From Bacillota bacterium (lineage in GTDB: Bacteria; Bacillota; Dethiobacteria; DTU022; UBA8154), in NCBI GenBank assembly GCA_012728375.1, contig JAAYFF010000003.1, positions 5,427 through 69,426 of the forward strand: DNA of 64,000 nucleotides, in the 5' to 3' direction. The position numbers and the translations under genes were made by a program. Under the pieces are notes generated by a model. The model saw only the letters and a list, made by a program, of their open reading frames with translations, did not search any database and was not told the DNA's origin. This document shows positions 290 through 41,548 of the stretch, piece by piece. Every line of letters starts with the position of its first letter. Within the stretch, counting starts at the first letter, position 1.

Positions 290-3200
290 TTGTTTATTCA
301 CCTTCATGTGCATACTGAATATAGCCTTCTAGACGGGGCAGCCCGCATTCGGAGCCTTGTGGATAAAGCAGCGGAATTAGGCATGCCGGCTGTTGCCATT
401 ACTGATCACGGAGCAATGTACGGAGTAATTGAATTCTATAAGGCGGCACGGGCCAAAGGAATAAAGCCTTTGATCGGGTGCGAGGTATATGTGGCTCCAA
501 AGGGCCGTTTCCGCAAAGAGGGAAACCGGGACAACCTTTATCATCATCTGGTTCTCCTGGCCAAAGATGAGGAAGGATACCGCAATCTAGTTAAAATTGT
601 CAGCGCCGGTTTCCTGGAGGGCTTTTATTATAAACCGAGAGTGGATAAGGAACTTCTCTTACAGTACAATAAAGGACTTATTGCTTTGAGCGCCTGCATG
701 GCCGGAGAAATTCCGGAACTGCTCCTAAGGGGCGAAGAAAAAAAAGCTTTGGAGACAGCGCTCTGGTATAGGGATACCTTTGGGGAAGGCAACTTCTACC
801 TGGAATTGCAGAACCAGGGTATCCCGGAGCAAAAAGAATTAAACCGCAAGCTTTTTGAGCTGGGCCGGGCGGTCGGAATACCCCTTGTTGCCACAAATGA
901 TGTGCATTATCTTGAACGGGAAGATGCAGAAGCTCATGACGTCCTGCTGTGCATCCAAACGGGTAAAAATATCGACGACCCGAAACGCTTGAAATTTGAA
1001 AGTGATAATTTTTATTTTAAATCGGAAAAAGAGATGCAGGAAGCATTTGACGGTTTTCCAGCCGAGGTTTTGGAAAACACCTGTAAAATTGCCGAGAAAA
1101 TAAATCTTGATTTTGAATTTAACAAAAGGTACCTGCCCCGTTACAAAATACCCCCTTCTTATTCAACTCCTGAAGAGTATTTAAGGGACCTCTGCCGCGA
1201 AGGCCTGGCAAAAAGGTATACAAAAATAACACCTGCAATACAGGAGCGCCTTGATTATGAGCTGCGCGTCATTGAACAAATGGGTTTTGCAGGCTACTTT
1301 TTAATTGTTTGGGATTTCGTCAATTTTGCCGTGAAAAAAGGGATCCCAGTAGGACCGGGAAGGGGTTCTGCTGCGGGGAGTCTGGTTGCTTATTCCCTTT
1401 TTATAACGAATATCGATCCTTTGCGCTATGGTCTGCTTTTTGAAAGGTTTTTGAATCCGGAAAGGGTAACCATGCCTGATGTGGATATTGATTTTTGCTA
1501 CGAGCGGCGGGATGAAGTAATCCGCTATGTAGTTGAAAAATACGGTGAAGATCGCGTTGCCCAGATTATTACCTTCGGTACTATGGCAGCCCGCATGGCG
1601 GTGCGGGATGTGGGGCGTGCCCTTAATTTTACCTACGCGGAGGCGGACCGCGTTGCCAAGGCAATTCCGGAAGAACTGGGGATGACGATTCAAAAGGCTT
1701 TGGAAATGAATCCAGAGCTCTTTGAACTCTACAACACCGATGAACGCTACCGGAAGTTGCTGGATATTTCCCGCAAAGTGGAGGGGCTACCCAGGCATGC
1801 TTCCACCCATGCGGCCGGCGTAGTCATCTCGGAGAACCCCCTGGTCGACCATGTTCCCCTTCAGAAGACAAACGGAACTCTGGTTACCCAGTTCCCAATG
1901 AATATTTTAGAGGAGCTGGGCCTTTTGAAAATGGATTTTCTGGGCTTGCGCACGCTGACAATTATGGAGGAGGCGGTCAGGCAGGTTAATCAGCGACGGG
2001 GAGAAGAAAAAAAAGAAAAGAAACTTGATCTTGCTGCCATTCCGCTGGATGATGCCCTCACTTTTTCTTTGCTTTCCCAGGGAGATACCGGGGGGGTTTT
2101 CCAGTTGGAAAGCAGCGGTATGCGTTCAGTTCTTCGGGAGTTGAAGCCCACATCGTTTGAGGATATTATTGCCGTTGTTGCCCTTTACCGGCCGGGGCCG
2201 ATGGAACAAATCCCTGTCTTTATTGAGAGCAAGCATGGAGATAAGGAGATAAGCTACCTTCATCCGGATTTGGAACCCATTCTTAAGGAAACTTACGGGG
2301 TTATCGTTTATCAGGAGCAGATTATGGAGATAGCTGCCAGGATGGCCGGCTTTTCCCTGGGACAGGCTGACCTTTTACGCAGGGCCATCGGCAAAAAGAA
2401 AAAGGAAATCCTGGATGAGCAGCGGCAGCTTTTTATTGGCGGGGTTGAAAAAAAAGGCTATAGCAAAAAACTTGGCGAGGACCTGTATGATCTGATCGTC
2501 AAATTTGCTTCCTATGGCTTTAACAAATCCCATGCCGCGGCATATGCCATGGTAGCTTACCAGACTGCTTATCTAAAGGCAAATTATCCTGTGGAATTCA
2601 TGGCTGCCCTTCTTACCGGGGTGATGTCCAATACTGCCAGAATTGCCCTATACATTGCCGATTGCCGGAGGCAGGGGATTGAAATCCTTCCCCCCGACGT
2701 AAATGAAAGTGAAACGAATTTTACTGTTGTCGGACCCAAGAAGATTCGTTTCGGCTTGGCCGCAATAAAAAATGTCGGGAAGGGCGCTATTGAAACGATT
2801 ATTGGAACCCGGAAGAAAGAGGGAAAATTTACCGGGCTGGGGGATTTTTGCAGAAAGGTGGATCTGCGCACCTGCAACCGGAAGGTTCTTGAAAGCTTGA
2901 TCAAATGCGGTGCTTTTGATTCCTTGGGGGGATTCCGTTCCCAGTATTTGAATTATCTCGACCAGGCATTACAATCAGGGCAGCAAATTCAAAAAGATAA
3001 AATGAACGGCCAGATATCCATGTTTTCTTACCTGGGAGAGGAAAAGTTTGCCGGGGAGCAAGGGGACGATCTTGCACCTTTACCGGAGTTTTCACAAAGG
3101 GAGAAACTTATTTTTGAAAAGGAGCTGACCGGACTTTATATTTCCGGACACCCATTGGATCAGTACCGTCAGATTCTGGAAAACTTAAAAGGCGCTACTC

Positions 3201-19986: not shown

Positions 19987-20073
19987 TGGTGCCGGTGGTG
20001 GGATTTGAACCCACACGTCCTTGCGGACAACGGATTTTGAGTCCGCCCCGTCTGCCAATTCCAGCACACCGGC
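19987..20073 (-). tRNA. tRNA-Leu (anticodon CAA)
   Basis: GCCGGTG acceptor stem, D-loop TGGAATTGGCAG, anticodon loop CTCAAAA, long variable arm, GGTTCAAATCC T-loop, encoded CCA; upstream TTGACA/TAGTAT promoter-like boxes. Confidence 0.96.
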
Positions 20074-27312: not shown

Positions 27313-27362
27313 AAGGTTGCTAACAAAGCATCAACAATTAAAGTATATTTTTGTTTACAAAT

Positions 27363-27724
27363 GAGTAAACTGGGCAGCCGCGGAGGTCGAGAAAAGGCCT
27401 TCGAGGAAAGTCCGAGCTCCGCAGGGCAGGGTGCTGGGTAACACCCAGTGGGGGCGACCCTAAGGAAAGTGCCACAGAAATTAAACCGCCCTTTAAGTAA
27501 AGGGTAAGGATGAAACGGTGCGGTAAGAGCGCACCAGCAGCCGGGCGACCGGCCGGCTAGGCAAACCCCACCCGGAGCAAGACAGAATAGGAGGGAGATG
27601 ACGTTGCCCGCCGAATCCCTCGGGTAAAGTCGCTGGAGGTGTCAGGCAACTGGCATCCAAGATAGATGGCTGCCGCTCCTTTTAGTTTTAATGGAGATAC
27701 AGAACTCGGCTTACAAGTTTGCTC
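27363..27724 (+). ncRNA. rnpB: RNase P RNA, bacterial type A
   Basis: GAGGAAAGTCCGAGCTC, AGTGCCACAGAAA, GGTAAGAG, GGCAAACCCC, ACAGAACTCGGCTTAC; terminal GAGTAAAC/GTTTGCTC helix. Confidence 0.97.
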
Positions 27725-27916
27725 ATTGTTAACTAATTAATACCGCATAAATGATTATGCGGTATTTTATTTTCAGGAGGAAGCCTTCCGTCTTTAGGAC
27801 TGAAGGCTTTAAAGTTTCGCTGCGCTGGGGGGATAGAATGGGTAGGCAACATATTTTTCTATCTTATGATATAATTATACTATATCAAGAAAACGCATGT
27901 TCAATAAGGGAAGGGG

Positions 27917-36518: not shown

Positions 36519-37292
36519 TTATCTGAAATGGCTTTTTAGCTCGTGCACATATGCCGGAAGCGCGGTCCGCCAGTTTTTTCCCGAGAGGTGGCAAATGATG
36601 CTGCTGCCGACAATAACCCCGTCCACAAGTTGTGCTATCCGGCCTGCCTGTTCCTTTGTCGAAATGCCGAAACCCATGCACAGGGGCAGTGAAGCATGTT
36701 TTTTAACCCTTTTCACAAACTCCGGCAGTCCGGGAGGAAGGCTTTCCCTCATACCTGTCACTCCTTCTACTGAAACGAGATAGAGAAAGCCCCTGGAGCG
36801 TTCGGCTATATATTTGACCCTCTCATCAGGTGTATTGGGGGCGACAAGATAAATTAGGTCGAGCCCCCGTGAAAATGCACTTTTTTCCAGCATCCCGGCT
36901 TCCTCGGGAGGAAGGTCGGGGATGATGAATCCGTCCACACCCGCAGAGGATGAGTCTGCACAGAAATCTTCCAGCCCGTATTGCAGAATGGGGTTGTAAT
37001 AACCCATGAAGATAAGGGGAATGGATGAACTTTTCCGTATCAGACGAACGGCATTGATGCACATCTTTATGTTGACGCCGTTTTGCAGAGCTTTGTTTGC
37101 AGCCTGCTGAATTGTAACCCCGTCAACAAGAGGGTCAGAGAAGGGGATACCCAGCTCAATAATATCCGCTCCGCTTTTCTCCAGCAGCAGCACTGCTTCC
37201 ACCGTTTCCTGCAAAGAGGGATAGCCTGCGGTGAGATAGGGGATAAGAAGGGTACCTTTTTTATTGTCAAAAACAGAACTGATGCGGCTCAT
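36519..37292 (-). CDS. trpA: Tryptophan synthase alpha
   Basis: [31 protein letters not shown]. Confidence 0.96.
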
Positions 37293-38491
37293 CTTTTTCC
37301 CTCCATTTGCTCCCGGATAATCTCCAAGTCTTTATCTCCCCGGCCGGAGAGGTTGACGACAACAATCTGCCCTTCTTTAAGGGAAGGGGCCAGTTTCATA
37401 GTGTAAGCCAAGGCGTGTGCGGACTCCAGGGCGGGGATAATCCCCTCGGTGAGGCTGAGAAATTCTACGGCCTGTAGCGCTTCTTTGTCCAGTACGGCCG
37501 TGTAGTCGGCGCGGCCGCTTTCTTTCAGGTAGCTGTGTTCCGGACCGACGCCAGGGTAATCAAGACCCGCGGAAATGCTGTGTACCTCTGCAATATTGCC
37601 GTCTGCGTCCTGAAGAAGCAGCGACCTGGCACCGTGAAAAACTCCCGGCCTGCCCATGCTCAGTGTCGCGGCATGCCGTCCGCTTGCCGGGTCCTGCCCT
37701 CCGGCTTCCACCCCGACCATTTTTACTGTTTGCTCCTTCACAAAGGGGTAAAAAAGACCCATGGCATTGGAGCCGCCTCCCACACAGGCGATCAGATAGT
37801 CAGGCAGCCTGTTGTAGCGAGTTTTCAGCTGCTCTTTAACCTCTCGCCCGATGACAGACTGAAAATCCCGTACCATCATGGGAAAAGGGTGGGGCCCCAC
37901 CACAGAGCCCAAAAGATAGTGAGTCTCCCTTACGCTCGCTACCCAGTCCCTGAAAGCTTCGTTAACAGCCTCCTTCAGTGTTCCGTTTTCACCGCCCGCG
38001 GGTTTTACTTCAGCTCCCAGGAGCTGCATGCGGGCGACGTTGGGAGACTGGCGGGCCATATCCTTTTCGCCCATGTAGATAACGCACTCCATCTTGAGCA
38101 TGGCGCAGACCGCTGCCACAGCAACTCCGTGCTGTCCGGCCCCCGTTTCAGCAATAATGCGTTTTTTTCCCATCTTCACGGCCAGCAGCCCCTGTCCCAG
38201 CACATTGTTGATCTTGTGGGCTCCCGTATGCAACAGGTCCTCTCTTTTAAGAAAAATACGGGCTTTGCTCCCTAGCTTCTCTGCAAAGTTTACCGCCTCA
38301 TAAAGGGGTGTGGGGCGTCCCGCCCACTCGGCTAAAAGGCGGTAAAGTTCCCTCTGAAAATCCGGGTCTTTCTTCGCCTGCCGGTAGGCTTCCGTGAGCT
38401 CATCTAAAGCGGGAGCCAGTATTTCCGGCACGAAACGGCCGCCGAAGCTGCCGAAATATCCTTTTTCATCGGGTACCATATCATCTGTCAT
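37289..38491 (-). CDS. trpB: Tryptophan synthase beta
   Basis: [17 protein letters not shown] lysine, [22 protein letters not shown]; probable ATG at 38491. Confidence 0.97.
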
Positions 38492-39200
38492 TTCGGTTGT
38501 TTCCTTTCGCTGCGGAAGCATCCGCATGATATTTTGCCGGCAGATCCATGACTGCTCGCAAAAAACAAATTACTTTTTTTCTTTCCAGCCGTCCCGCGGT
38601 AGTAACCGCGCTAAAGGCATCAACAGCAAAAGGCTGCACTGTAGCGAGAGCATTTTTAATATTATTTTTATTTAACCCGCCTGCCAGAATAAGGGGGGAA
38701 GGATAGATTGCTTTGCGTATCCGCCTGGCAACCTCCAGGGGAAACTGTAGCCCGGTTGAGCCCACTTTTTCCGCTGTCATTGTATCCAGCAAAATAGCAT
38801 CGGCACCTGCCTCCACGTACTCCCTGGCACAACGCTCCGGGTCTGCCCCTTCCGCTAAACCTTTTTCCATCCAGTGCAGTGTTTTAATAATGGCTGTCTT
38901 AAGCTTTCTTTTTAAGAAGGCCACCTGTTCCACCGCATTAAAACCATGAAGCTGCACAGCATCAGGATTCACTTCTTTTGCCATGAAGATTACCCGTTCT
39001 GCTTGTTCCTCGGTAATGATTAAAATGGAGGTCACCAGAGGAGGAATCAGCCGGCGGAGGCCTCGTGCCTGTTCCAGGGAGAGGCGGCAGGGAAGTTTTT
39101 GCCTTACTTCCGTAATCAGGCCGATTCCATGGGCGCCTTCTTCCACCAGCATTTTTATATCGGAAGGCTCATAGCTTCCGCAAAGCATAACACGGGTCAT
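38481..39200 (-). CDS. trpF: Phosphoribosylanthranilate isomerase (divergent)
   Basis: MLCG, VQLHG, ILLD, LAGGLN, PFAVD; position in the trp operon. Confidence 0.85.
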
Positions 39201-39964
39201 GAAATTCTCCTCCCCCCAGGCATACTTGCCCTGACAAAGGAAGCCACTTTTTCTGCGGGCTTCCGGGAAAGCATAAAGGCCGTCCCTACGAGTACTGCAT
39301 CAGCACCGCATGACAGGGAAAAAAGGGCGTCGTCCGGGCTTCGGTGTGCGCTCTGGCAGACAAGAAGGGCGTCTCCTATTACTTGCCGGTAAGCCTCTGC
39401 TGTTTTTGGCGTTAGTCGTATTATATCCTCTTCTTTTTCCAATTTGTCGATATCTTTGTTATTAAAGCCCACACCGGTTAACTTTCCAGCGATTTCTTTT
39501 AAGCAGGGGATGTCTTCCGTTCCCCGCGTCTCTACCAAGGCTTCCATTCCATAGCTGTACACCTGCTCAAGCACCGCGGGGAGCTTCTCCTTTAGGAGGT
39601 GAGCGATGAGGAGGATGGTGACGCGGGATTTCCGGCTGTCTCCCAAACGGTCCAGTAATTCGGCGTAATAATCGATCCCTGTCTCATCAAAAATAAAGTC
39701 TTTGATAAGCAAAGGCAGAGTTGAAGCCCGCAGGACCGCAGGGATGTCTTCTTCCGGGTTTCCCCCGAAAAAGCGTTTTTCCGTAACGAGGGAGATCCCG
39801 GCTGCTCCGCCGTTTTCGTAATCTTTTGCCAGAAGCCCCGCATCCCGGCTGTCAGGGAGGTAATGATCCTTATCCGCCAGCTTGGGAATCAAGCGCTTTA
39901 TTTCCGCTATGACAGGGACAATACCTGCAGCTTTTGCTTTAATTAATGACTGTGCCAGGTTCAA
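39197..39964 (-). CDS. trpC: Indole-3-glycerol phosphate synthase (divergent)
   Basis: IAEIK, ISLVTE, LLIKDF, LVE, GFNN, VLVG; position in the trp operon. Confidence 0.82.
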   Translation of the reverse strand: MNLAQSLIKAKAAGIVPVIAEIKRLIPKLADKDHYLPDSRDAGLLAKDYENGGAAGISLVTEKRFFGGNPEEDIPAVLRASTLPLLIKDFIFDETGIDYYAELLDRLGDSRKSRVTILLIAHLLKEKLPAVLEQVYSYGMEALVETRGTEDIPCLKEIAGKLTGVGFNNKDIDKLEKEEDIIRLTPKTAEAYRQVIGDALLVCQSAHRSPDDALFSLSCGADAVLVGTAFMLSRKPAEKVASFVRASMPGGRRIS

Positions 39965-40994
39965 AAGCTTTACCCTCCTTTAACTCTTTTGATCTCCTGC
40001 TTATCTCTTCAACTTTAGCCATGGCGAGGCCTGAGTCCAGGGTATGCCGGGCAAGCTCAAAGCCTGCAAAAAGATCCTCGGCTTTTCCTCCTACCACCAT
40101 GGTGGCCGCCGCATTAAGCAGGAGCATATCACGCCTTGGGCCTTTGTCTTTCCCGCTGAAAATGTTTCTGATGATATTTGCGTTGTAAACAGGGCTGCCT
40201 CCCTTGATATCTTGGAGCGAACAACGGCGAAGCCCGAAATCTTCTGGAAATACACTGAAAGTCCTTATCTTGCCGTTTTTTATTTCTGCGATCTTTGTTT
40301 CACCCAGGAGAGACAATTCATCCAATCCGTCGGTGCCGTGAAGAACCATGACATGCTCAAAGCCAAGCATGGCCACCACTTCAGCCATCATATCCACAAG
40401 CTGGGGTTGATATACTCCCAGGACATGGCGTTTGGCACCGGCAGGATTAATTAGCGGTCCGATAATCGTAAAAAAAATTGTTTTGATACCCAGTTCATTT
40501 TCAGGTGAAAAAACTTTGAGCATGACGGGATGAAAAAGGGGGGCATAAAGGAAGGAAAAACCGGTTTCTTCGATGAGGAGCTCTGCCTGGCGGGGCTCCA
40601 GTTCTACTTCGATTCCCAGTGCCTCCAGGACATCAGCGCTTCCGGAAGAGGCAGATATAGAGCGGGAGCCGTGTTTCGCTATTTTAACTCCTGCAGCAGC
40701 AGAGAGGAGGGCGTTTGCACTGCTGACATTAAAGGTGGTCAAGCCGCCTCCTGTTCCGCAGGTGTCAGTTAACTTCCCGTTAACCCGGGGCCTGAGAGGA
40801 ATGCAAACCTGCTGCATAGAGCGTGCGATAGCAGCGATTTCACCCACTGTAGGCCCTTTCATTAACAGGGCCATTAAAAAGCCGGCAATTTGTACTTGAG
40901 AAAAACGATTCTCCGCAAGGCCTGTAATAACTTCATTTATTTCAGGCTGGCCCAGTTCTTCTTTCCGGGCAAGCTGCTTTAAAATTTCTTTCAT
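39939..40994 (-). CDS. trpD: Anthranilate phosphoribosyltransferase
   Basis: DTCGTGG, KHGSRSIS, GSADVLE, GPLINP, GLDE. Confidence 0.95.
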   Translation of the reverse strand: MKEILKQLARKEELGQPEINEVITGLAENRFSQVQIAGFLMALLMKGPTVGEIAAIARSMQQVCIPLRPRVNGKLTDTCGTGGGLTTFNVSSANALLSAAAGVKIAKHGSRSISASSGSADVLEALGIEVELEPRQAELLIEETGFSFLYAPLFHPVMLKVFSPENELGIKTIFFTIIGPLINPAGAKRHVLGVYQPQLVDMMAEVVAMLGFEHVMVLHGTDGLDELSLLGETKIAEIKNGKIRTFSVFPEDFGLRRCSLQDIKGGSPVYNANIIRNIFSGKDKGPRRDMLLLNAAATMVVGGKAEDLFAGFELARHTLDSGLAMAKVEEISRRSKELKEGKAFEPGTVIN

Positions 40995-41136
40995 GTGTTA
41001 AAATCTCCCTTCTTTTCGGTAAAAATAACAGATAAAATTCCGGGCAATGAATGCACCGGTTGAAAACGGTTAATTTAGCCCTTGCGGGCCATCTCCAGAG
41101 CCAGGTCTTATTTTTAAATATGCAGCTTTGCAACAT
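40942..41136 (-). CDS. Putative Trp-rich leader ORF (TrpL-like) overlapping the trpD start
   Basis: AAGGAGG RBS, ATG 41136, W-L-W-R-W codons at 41103-41089; lies between the T-box terminator and trpD. Confidence 0.7.
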   Translation of the reverse strand: MLQSCIFKNKTWLWRWPARAKLTVFNRCIHCPEFYLLFLPKRREILTHERNFKAACPERRTGPA

Positions 41137-41164
41137 GATAAAATTTCCTCCTTAGTTTTTTAAA

Positions 41165-41470
41165 ATAAAAATGCCCTTCGCCTTGAAAAGGGCGAGGGGC
41201 AAATATGCCTTCGCGGTGCCACCTTAACTTACCGGGCCTGTAGGCCGGTATCTCTTTGAACAGGTACGGAAACCCTGCCGCTTCTGCCGGCAAAGTATCG
41301 ATACCCCGAGCTCTATTAACGGTGCTCTATCCGTCAGGAGCTACTTGACCAGCCGTTCGCCCTTGCATCTTCCAGGTCCATTCACCGCCTGCGCTAGGAC
41401 CGGGTTCCCACCTTTCCCGGTTCTCTGGGCCTCCGCTTTGCCGGCTACTCTTCCCGTGCATCGATTTTAA
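41165..41470 (-). promoter_or_regulatory. T-box riboswitch, Trp specifier
   Basis: AGTA and AGAGA stem I motifs, GAA-TGG specifier (41380-41378), T-box AAGGTGGCACCGCG (41225-41212), terminator GCCCCTCGCCC-TTTTCAA-GGCGAAGGGC plus U tract. Confidence 0.93.
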
Positions 41471-41548
41471 TAATATTAATTTTCTTTATATCTTAGATTT
41501 ATATCTTAAATTTCTGTTTTTGTCAATTCATTTTTAGACCTAGATAAT

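Follow-up and report, generated by a model that had tools for sequence, protein, structure and literature searches.

Introduction

In the at operon of Bacillus subtilis, a Trp T-box is followed by rtpLP, a leader peptide frame with three Trp codons, and by rtpA, which encodes anti-TRAP; full translation of RtpLP prevents translation of RtpA (PMC2311275). The present study concerns a leader of comparable design upstream of trpD, the first gene of a trpDCFBA operon, in a 64,000-nt stretch of DNA from a member of the Bacillota (contig JAAYFF010000003.1 of assembly GCA_012728375.1; the whole stretch is referred to here as the window). As in the at operon, a Trp T-box and its terminator precede a short open reading frame (ORF) that has its own Shine-Dalgarno (SD) sequence and clustered Trp codons. 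Unlike in the at operon, the regulated target is trpDCFBA itself and not a regulator, and no TRAP gene was found in this genome or in eight relatives. The leader has 64 codons and runs out of frame over the trpD SD and ATG, whereas rtpLP has 10 codons. A ribosome terminating on rtpLP covers the downstream SD, but in the window the leader stop lies 53 nt inside trpD and a ribosome would instead pass over the ribosome binding site (RBS). The invariant GC hairpin that begins inside the last UGG of the present leader may be a further difference.

Two serial sensors of tRNA(Trp) charging before trp genes are likewise a feature of the tandem T-boxes reportedly found by Gutierrez-Preciado, Yanofsky and Merino in 2007 in trp operon leaders of Firmicutes, although in the present locus the second sensor is an ORF rather than a T-box. 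Eukaryotic inhibitory upstream ORFs (uORFs) of the ATF4 uORF2 type offer an analogy only: the upstream ORF overlaps the main start out of frame, ribosomes bypass the main ORF, and amino-acid stress relieves the block. Bacterial initiation, however, is directed by the SD and internal rather than dependent on scanning, and relief in the present case would come from stalling at limiting codons and not from eIF2 phosphorylation. To our knowledge, the only case characterised so far in which a T-box is combined with a Trp leader peptide is that of anti-TRAP, a regulator, in Bacillus. Full-text literature searching found no account of a T-box joined to a Trp leader ahead of trp biosynthesis genes; the main reviews of trp regulation lay outside this search, and an earlier description is possible. 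In Escherichia coli trpL, as here, a leader peptide has Trp codons in the 5′ arm of a hairpin, there the 1:2 pause hairpin (PMC8346122). Unlike trpL, the present leader has no 2:3 antiterminator partner, no 3:4 terminator and no leader stop just after the Trp codons, and control of transcription is supplied upstream by the T-box.

We put at roughly 0.5 the probability that this leader is a tandem sensor like the T-box-rtpLP-rtpA arrangement of B. subtilis, in which full translation of the leader would put ribosomes on the trpD start and stalling at the UGG codons would free trpD.

Results

The elements of the leader and of its junction with trpD are listed below. Coordinates are positions in the window; all elements of the leader and the operon are on the minus strand, and the genome to which the window belongs is called G000.

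41153..41147, minus strand: leader SD, AAGGAGG, 10 nt before the ATG (from the sequence).
41136..40942, minus strand: leader ORF of 64 codons, ATG at 41136, beginning MLQSCIFKNKTWLWRWPARA (ORF list).
41103..41089, minus strand: Trp cluster UGG-CUC-UGG-AGA-UGG (WLWRW), the Trp codons being codons 12, 14 and 16.
41091..41076, minus strand: hairpin 1, U-GGCCC-GCAA-GGGCU-A, predicted fold of -10.1 kcal/mol, with the 5′ arm starting inside the last UGG.
41059..41040, minus strand: hairpin 2, CCGGUGCA-UUCAU-UGCCCGG, followed by a U-rich tract (from the sequence).
41011..41005, minus strand: trpD SD, AAGGGAG (from the sequence); a block AAGGGAG or AAAGGAG is invariant in the alignment (A1).
40994..39939, minus strand: trpD, anthranilate phosphoribosyltransferase, ATG at 40994 (NCBIfam TIGR01245, 360 bits).
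40994..40942, minus strand: out-of-frame overlap of 53 nt between the leader ORF, in the -1 frame, and the start of trpD; leader stop TGA at 40944..40942.

A previous reading of this DNA from sequence only had described the terminator of a Trp-specifier T-box, the AAGGAGG, the 64-codon ORF, WLWRW, two hairpins and a stop 53 nt inside trpD, and all of these were recovered where it had placed them. The full translation of the leader ORF is MLQSCIFKNKTWLWRWPARAKLTVFNRCIHCPEFYLLFLPKRREILTHERNFKAACPERRTGPA. The 2.38-Mb genome has 63 occurrences of the triple-UGG pattern TGGNNNTGGNNNTGG, both strands counted, corresponding to approximately 0.002 expected occurrences in the 175-nt leader/spacer.

Conservation was assessed in 13 related leaders, or 14 with that of the window, which come from uncultured Dethiobacteraceae and more distant lineages. 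Six belong to species-level relatives from four genera of the same family, with TrpD identities of 88-68% and the same layout. Among the seven others, L125 was recovered by a pattern scan of metagenomes, and L128, L130, L133, L135, L136 and L137 were found on contigs that encode TrpD homologues. All 13 leaders have an SD of the GGAGG type and an invariant ATG. The Trp codons, on whose conservation the sequence-only reading had hinged, were retained in all 13 (one to three per leader), in the arrangement WxW, WxWxW or WW at codons 8-16 in 12 of these and as a single Trp in L133. Of the 14 leaders, 13 have their first Trp codon at codon 8-12; in L136, which is rearranged, it is codon 24. Although not part of the hairpin, the upstream UGG codons are conserved in frame. 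Apart from its Trp codons the leader peptide is not conserved; retention of these codons while the rest of the peptide diverges suggests that what matters is the act of translating the leader and not its product. These features provide good support for the leader as a conserved, probably translated Trp sensor. The homologous leader at 650-853 of L130 had been called by the ENA gene caller as a gene of 67 residues overlapping trpD, and leader ORFs of this kind may already sit unnoticed in protein databases.

The reading frame upstream of trpD was compared among the relatives. In the Dethiobacteraceae-type group, 9/9 complete relatives (10/10 leaders with the window) keep the leader frame open as far as the trpD RBS or beyond it. 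Between the hairpin and the trpD SD, the leader frame has no stop in the seven genome sequences, as against 15 and 19 stops in the other two frames; shuffling gave a chance of 0.05-0.23 per sequence for an open frame, with a product over the seven spacers of 1.2e-7. The trpD ATG lies 88, 91, 97, 106 or 166 nt from the last UGG, all distances congruent to 1 modulo 3, with the exception of G005 (93 nt), in which a TAG ends the leader 3 nt before the trpD ATG. A translated frame is characterised by insertions and deletions in multiples of three only.

Among the 13 complete leaders, the stop falls at +83, +50 (six leaders), +29, -6, -20, -21, -53 and -53 relative to the trpD ATG, so that 11 of the 13 end level with the trpD SD or past it. 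G000 and five relatives have the TGA at +50 in common, and the same stop is also present in trpD genes that have no leader. The +1 frame would end at an ATGA overlap, which favours reinitiation or coupling, and is never used by the leaders. In a more distant group with leaders beginning MII, the stops of L135 (-20) and L137 (-21) lie directly against the trpD SD, whereas L133 of the same group and L136, a rearranged leader, end 53 nt short of the trpD ATG. Every complete leader of the Dethiobacteraceae-type group would thus lead its ribosome onto or over the trpD RBS. The comparison with B. subtilis rtpLP/rtpA made in that reading proved apt (PMC2311275), and a stop of the rtpLP type beside the downstream SD is seen in L135, L137 and G005 (-6), as well as in a doubtful ORF of the GC-rich L126/L127. 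In the latter pair, at -60..+3 relative to trpD, a T-box match of 84 bits (below the cut-off) is followed by a minimal ORF, MDQRGCGGAMGWGSKGG, that has one Trp codon, no hairpin and a TGA between the trpD SD and a GTG start, close behind the former and 5 nt before the latter. This may be a reduced leader or a chance ORF.

The first hairpin proved to be more constrained than the peptide that it encodes. A hairpin of the form GGCCC-N3-5-GGGCC, with a 5′ arm that begins at the second base of the last UGG, is common to the related leaders. Its stem is identical in all of the sequences bar three, namely G000, which has a G-U closing pair, L135, in which both arms are extended by one paired base, and the truncated contig L131, with one mismatch. 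The loop, by comparison, has 10 distinct sequences among the 14 leaders, and the residues encoded across the hairpin vary (PARA, PVRA, PVGA, PFGA, PSGP and PRRGP). An invariant stem with a variable loop and variable encoded residues indicates that hairpin 1 is constrained at the RNA level, and the predicted GGCCC-N4-GGGCC hairpin is part of the leader module. It might pause RNA polymerase in the way of segment 1:2 of E. coli trpL, sharpen stalling by acting as a brake, or serve as a stabiliser. Hairpin 2 has no counterpart in the relatives, even within the genus, and was not called as a terminator. The first hairpin was given too little weight in the sequence-only reading, and the second is not conserved.

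The elements upstream of the leader ORF are as follows.

41526..41498, minus strand: likely sigma-A promoter, TTGACA-17 nt-TATAAA, as read from the sequence.
41470..41185, minus strand: T-box leader RNA, Rfam RF00230, 96.9 bits against a gathering score of 93, over the full model (positions 1-219).
41380..41378, minus strand: Trp specifier UGG within GAA-UGG-A in the Stem I loop, a codon that matches the regulated pathway.
41227..41212, minus strand: T-box sequence UUAAGGUGGCACCGCG, with the UGGN bulge.
41200..41173, minus strand: stem of the T-box intrinsic terminator, with a U-run to about 41161 (terminator scan); kept in the relatives.

The putative promoter was not listed by a consensus scan because its -10 hexamer ends in A. 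On sequence grounds, the T-box of the trpD leader is real and specific for Trp. The specifier GAA-UGG-AC is identical in the seven sequences compared, and T-boxes were matched in 10 relatives, eight of them at 93.6-116 bits; the other two, L126 (84.3 bits) and L123 (read by eye), are not above the cut-off. G000 has 14 T-box matches, and only that of trpD is followed by an ORF rich in its own specifier codon, the other 13 having none. One of the 13 is a second Trp T-box outside the window (C61:11669-11982), with a GAA-UGG-G specifier, which runs directly into a TrpB-like gene of the TrpB2 type with no leader ORF. In L123 (1650-2010), a UGG-specifier T-box of the same sequence family as that of trpD stands directly before trpB, again with no leader ORF, which points to the leader module as an add-on tied to trpD. 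At another locus of G000 outside the window (C62:18796-19311), a strong T-box match (129 bits) is immediately preceded by a weak one (46 bits); the pair may be a tandem or a degenerate double T-box, and the gene behind it resembles an ACT-domain DAHP synthase. A scan of 115 genomes of the order with the motif TGGNNNTGGCCCNNNNGGGCY gave matches outside the known loci about as often as a reversed-pattern control, and no T-box was found near the 20 such matches that were checked.

Several established control schemes were considered for the 175-nt spacer. A permissive Rfam scan found no second, tandem T-box in it. Classical attenuation of the trpL type was rejected, as no conserved terminator follows the Trp codons and there is no antiterminator partner: terminator scans returned the T-box terminators only, apart from one weak hairpin with a U-tract in G017, the Rfam Trp_leader model gave no match, and the best duplex between the 3′ arm of hairpin 1 and the downstream RNA was at the level of shuffled sequence in 13/13 leaders. 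The sequence-only reading had also proposed RNA folding constrained by the footprint of a stalled ribosome. Neither free folds nor folds with such a footprint showed a consistent change in the accessibility of the trpD SD or ATG in seven sequences, and an RNA switch that hides the trpD SD was rejected. Frameshifting at hungry codons into the trpD frame was discarded because that frame has stops in 6/7 spacers. A three-segment relay in L133 and L136 seemed plausible on inspection and from a truncated fold, but folding under constraints gave inconsistent results, and it is left as a lead.

Control by TRAP, which calls for nine to eleven (G/U)AG repeats in the leader, was also rejected. The window leader has no GAG repeats, with no GAGnnGAG pairs upstream of trpD, and a profile search found the TRAP gene (PF02081) neither in G000 nor in eight relatives. 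This sets the locus apart from TRAP-regulated trp leaders of the B. subtilis type and from orthologous trpD-first operons of other Bacillota families (67-71% TrpD identity), which have GAG-repeat TRAP sites and a terminator in the same position, as seen in L103 at 2520-2700(-), in L104 at 2700-2830(-) and also in L129, L132 and L134. In the same search PF02081 was found only in G192, G334 and G427, genomes whose trpD leaders carry GAG repeats. A further orthologous trpD-first operon, L112, has a plain T-box. In the metagenomic L136 (180-700), a GAG-repeat attenuator of the TRAP type with a terminator is followed by an apparent remnant of T-box Stem I and by a leader ORF that ends FNRWWPLGAERK and has a GGCCC-UUGG-GGGCC hairpin, a combination of a TRAP-type attenuator with a leader of the WW arrangement.

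The remainder of the operon is as follows.

39964..36519, minus strand: trpC, trpF, trpB and trpA, overlapping or abutting, downstream of trpD (NCBIfam: TrpC; TrpF; TrpB, TIGR00263; TrpA, TIGR00262).

An acetate-CoA ligase gene lies upstream of the trp operon. No chorismate-binding protein (PF00425), and hence no TrpE, PabB or MenF, was found in G000, which is 96% complete. Lack of TrpE implies that the trpDCFBA unit starts from anthranilate and would need an external supply of it. PF00425 is likewise missing from G002 and G017, while in G003, G005, G012 and G016 trpE is found together with a second trpD at a separate locus. Elsewhere in the window, Rfam scans identified a bacterial class A RNase P RNA at 27362-27729 (+), with 319 bits, and a long-arm tRNA gene at 19990-20073 (-).

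Discussion

From the anatomy of this leader and its conservation, both of which are observed, we infer that it is translated, that ribosomes stall at its UGG codons and that its effect on trpD is negative. As judged from the known family, RNA polymerase would pass the T-box terminator only when uncharged tRNA(Trp) is bound. Transcripts that read through would carry a well-initiated leader, and when charged tRNA(Trp) is plentiful its UGG codons 12, 14 and 16 would be read fast, so that ribosomes move through the spacer and, in the -1 frame, over the trpD SD and ATG before terminating 53 nt into trpD. Such traffic would repeatedly occupy the trpD initiation site or clear initiation complexes from it without placing a ribosome on the trpD ATG; in some relatives, ribosomes would instead terminate on the initiation region. 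With charged tRNA(Trp) in short supply, ribosomes would stall at the UGG cluster, about 100 nt upstream, leaving the trpD RBS, with its own good SD, free. The effect of the leader would multiply the T-box response, as in the at operon of B. subtilis, the two acting as tRNA(Trp) sensors in series. That ribosomes reading through the leader would repress trpD rather than activate it is suggested by analogy and by regulatory logic. Occlusion of the trpD start is the reading that we favour because the open frame is conserved, the frame suited to coupling is avoided, trpD has its own SD, which no conserved structure hides in the predicted folds, and the sign of the effect fits a biosynthetic operon.

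Several points weigh against occlusion. Selection for the stop at +50 was rejected, the presence of this stop in leaderless trpD genes making it incidental to trpD coding. The stops of L133 and L136, 53 nt short of trpD, mean that crossing of the RBS is not universal, and occlusion therefore cannot be the universal output of the module of Trp codons and hairpin. Ribosomes that terminate near a start often activate that start by coupling, and occlusion by ribosomes in transit may be weak. The hairpin, which is the most conserved element, is given no role. Finally, occlusion was deduced from sequence, and its output step on trpD is a prediction.

The leader might act instead on the stability of the message. 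A ribosome stalled at UGG, or the hairpin when the ribosome is absent, could block decay in the 5′-to-3′ direction of the RNase J type, making the trpDCFBA mRNA longer-lived under Trp starvation. The ermC mRNA of B. subtilis is stabilised by a stalled ribosome, and the direction of such regulation would be right for a trp operon. Only the SD, the ATG, the Trp codons and the stand-alone hairpin are shared by all 14 leaders, while the stop varies from -53 to +83, and a hairpin with no alternative pairing partner is what would be expected of a simple roadblock. Stabilisation nevertheless does not account for the 30-55 codons over which the Dethiobacteraceae group keeps the frame open as far as the trpD RBS, and 5′ stabilisation might already be provided by the hairpin of the T-box terminator. 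We consider it unlikely.

Positive translational coupling, by which translation of the leader would open or feed the trpD start and the Trp codons would brake or damp the T-box response, appears rather unlikely as well. Many plasmid rep leaders work by coupling, the stops at -6, -20 and -21 are within reinitiation distance of the trpD ATG, and pairing of the trpD start region is predicted in some folds, with mid-leader sequence in L137 and with nearby sequence in L135. Most leaders, however, end 29-83 nt past the trpD ATG and none makes use of the ideal ATGA frame; trpD has a strong SD of its own, with no conserved structure to sequester it; and the sign would be wrong for a biosynthetic operon that uncharged tRNA has already induced.

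A third alternative places the control at transcription: the hairpin would be an RNA polymerase pause site comparable to 1:2 of E. coli trpL, termination in the U-rich spacer would be weak and factor-dependent, and the position of the ribosome at the UGG codons would decide read-through. A Trp codon does lie in the 5′ arm of the hairpin, as in E. coli trpL (PMC8346122), attenuation by a leader peptide is known in Bacillota from yfmH (PMC7491331), and U-rich tracts precede the trpD SD, G000 and G017 having a hairpin and then a U-rich tract. This scheme is nonetheless improbable, as no conserved terminator follows the hairpin, pairing of its 3′ arm does not exceed that of shuffled sequence and no Trp_leader match was obtained from Rfam, and translation of the leader through the supposed terminator would misfit the classical arrangement. 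A chance ORF, untranslated and with Trp codons that are a by-product of the conserved RNA hairpin (UGGCCC...), would account for the last UGG, the conservation of which is partly at the RNA level where it overlaps the stem, and for the single Trp codon of L133, but can be considered very improbable in view of the upstream UGGs conserved in frame outside the hairpin, the invariant SD and ATG, the open frame with its multiple-of-three indels and the triple-UGG expectation of 0.002.

Occlusion of the trpD start can be extended, tentatively, to a more specific proposal. The leader would be a uORF, gated by its Trp codons and overlapping the trpD start out of frame, with which the flow of ribosomes, and not refolding of the RNA, sets the synthesis of TrpD. 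This gate would stand in series with a T-box on an anthranilate-salvage operon, the GC hairpin would be an element not described before, serving to tune stalling or to keep RNA polymerase in step with the ribosome, and the family would display steps between leaders of the rtpLP type and long overlapping ones.

The long out-of-frame overlap of a start site resembles inhibitory eukaryotic uORFs more than it does the known bacterial attenuators. The natural variants, with stops at -53, -20, -6, +29, +50 and +83, together with the invariant hairpin make the mechanism testable with simple reporters. Orthologous trpD operons switch among TRAP, a plain T-box and a T-box plus leader, and so provide a compact example of regulatory turnover. 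The two-sensor logic of the at operon appears to be placed directly on the Trp biosynthesis genes themselves, in a different class of Bacillota that lacks TRAP.

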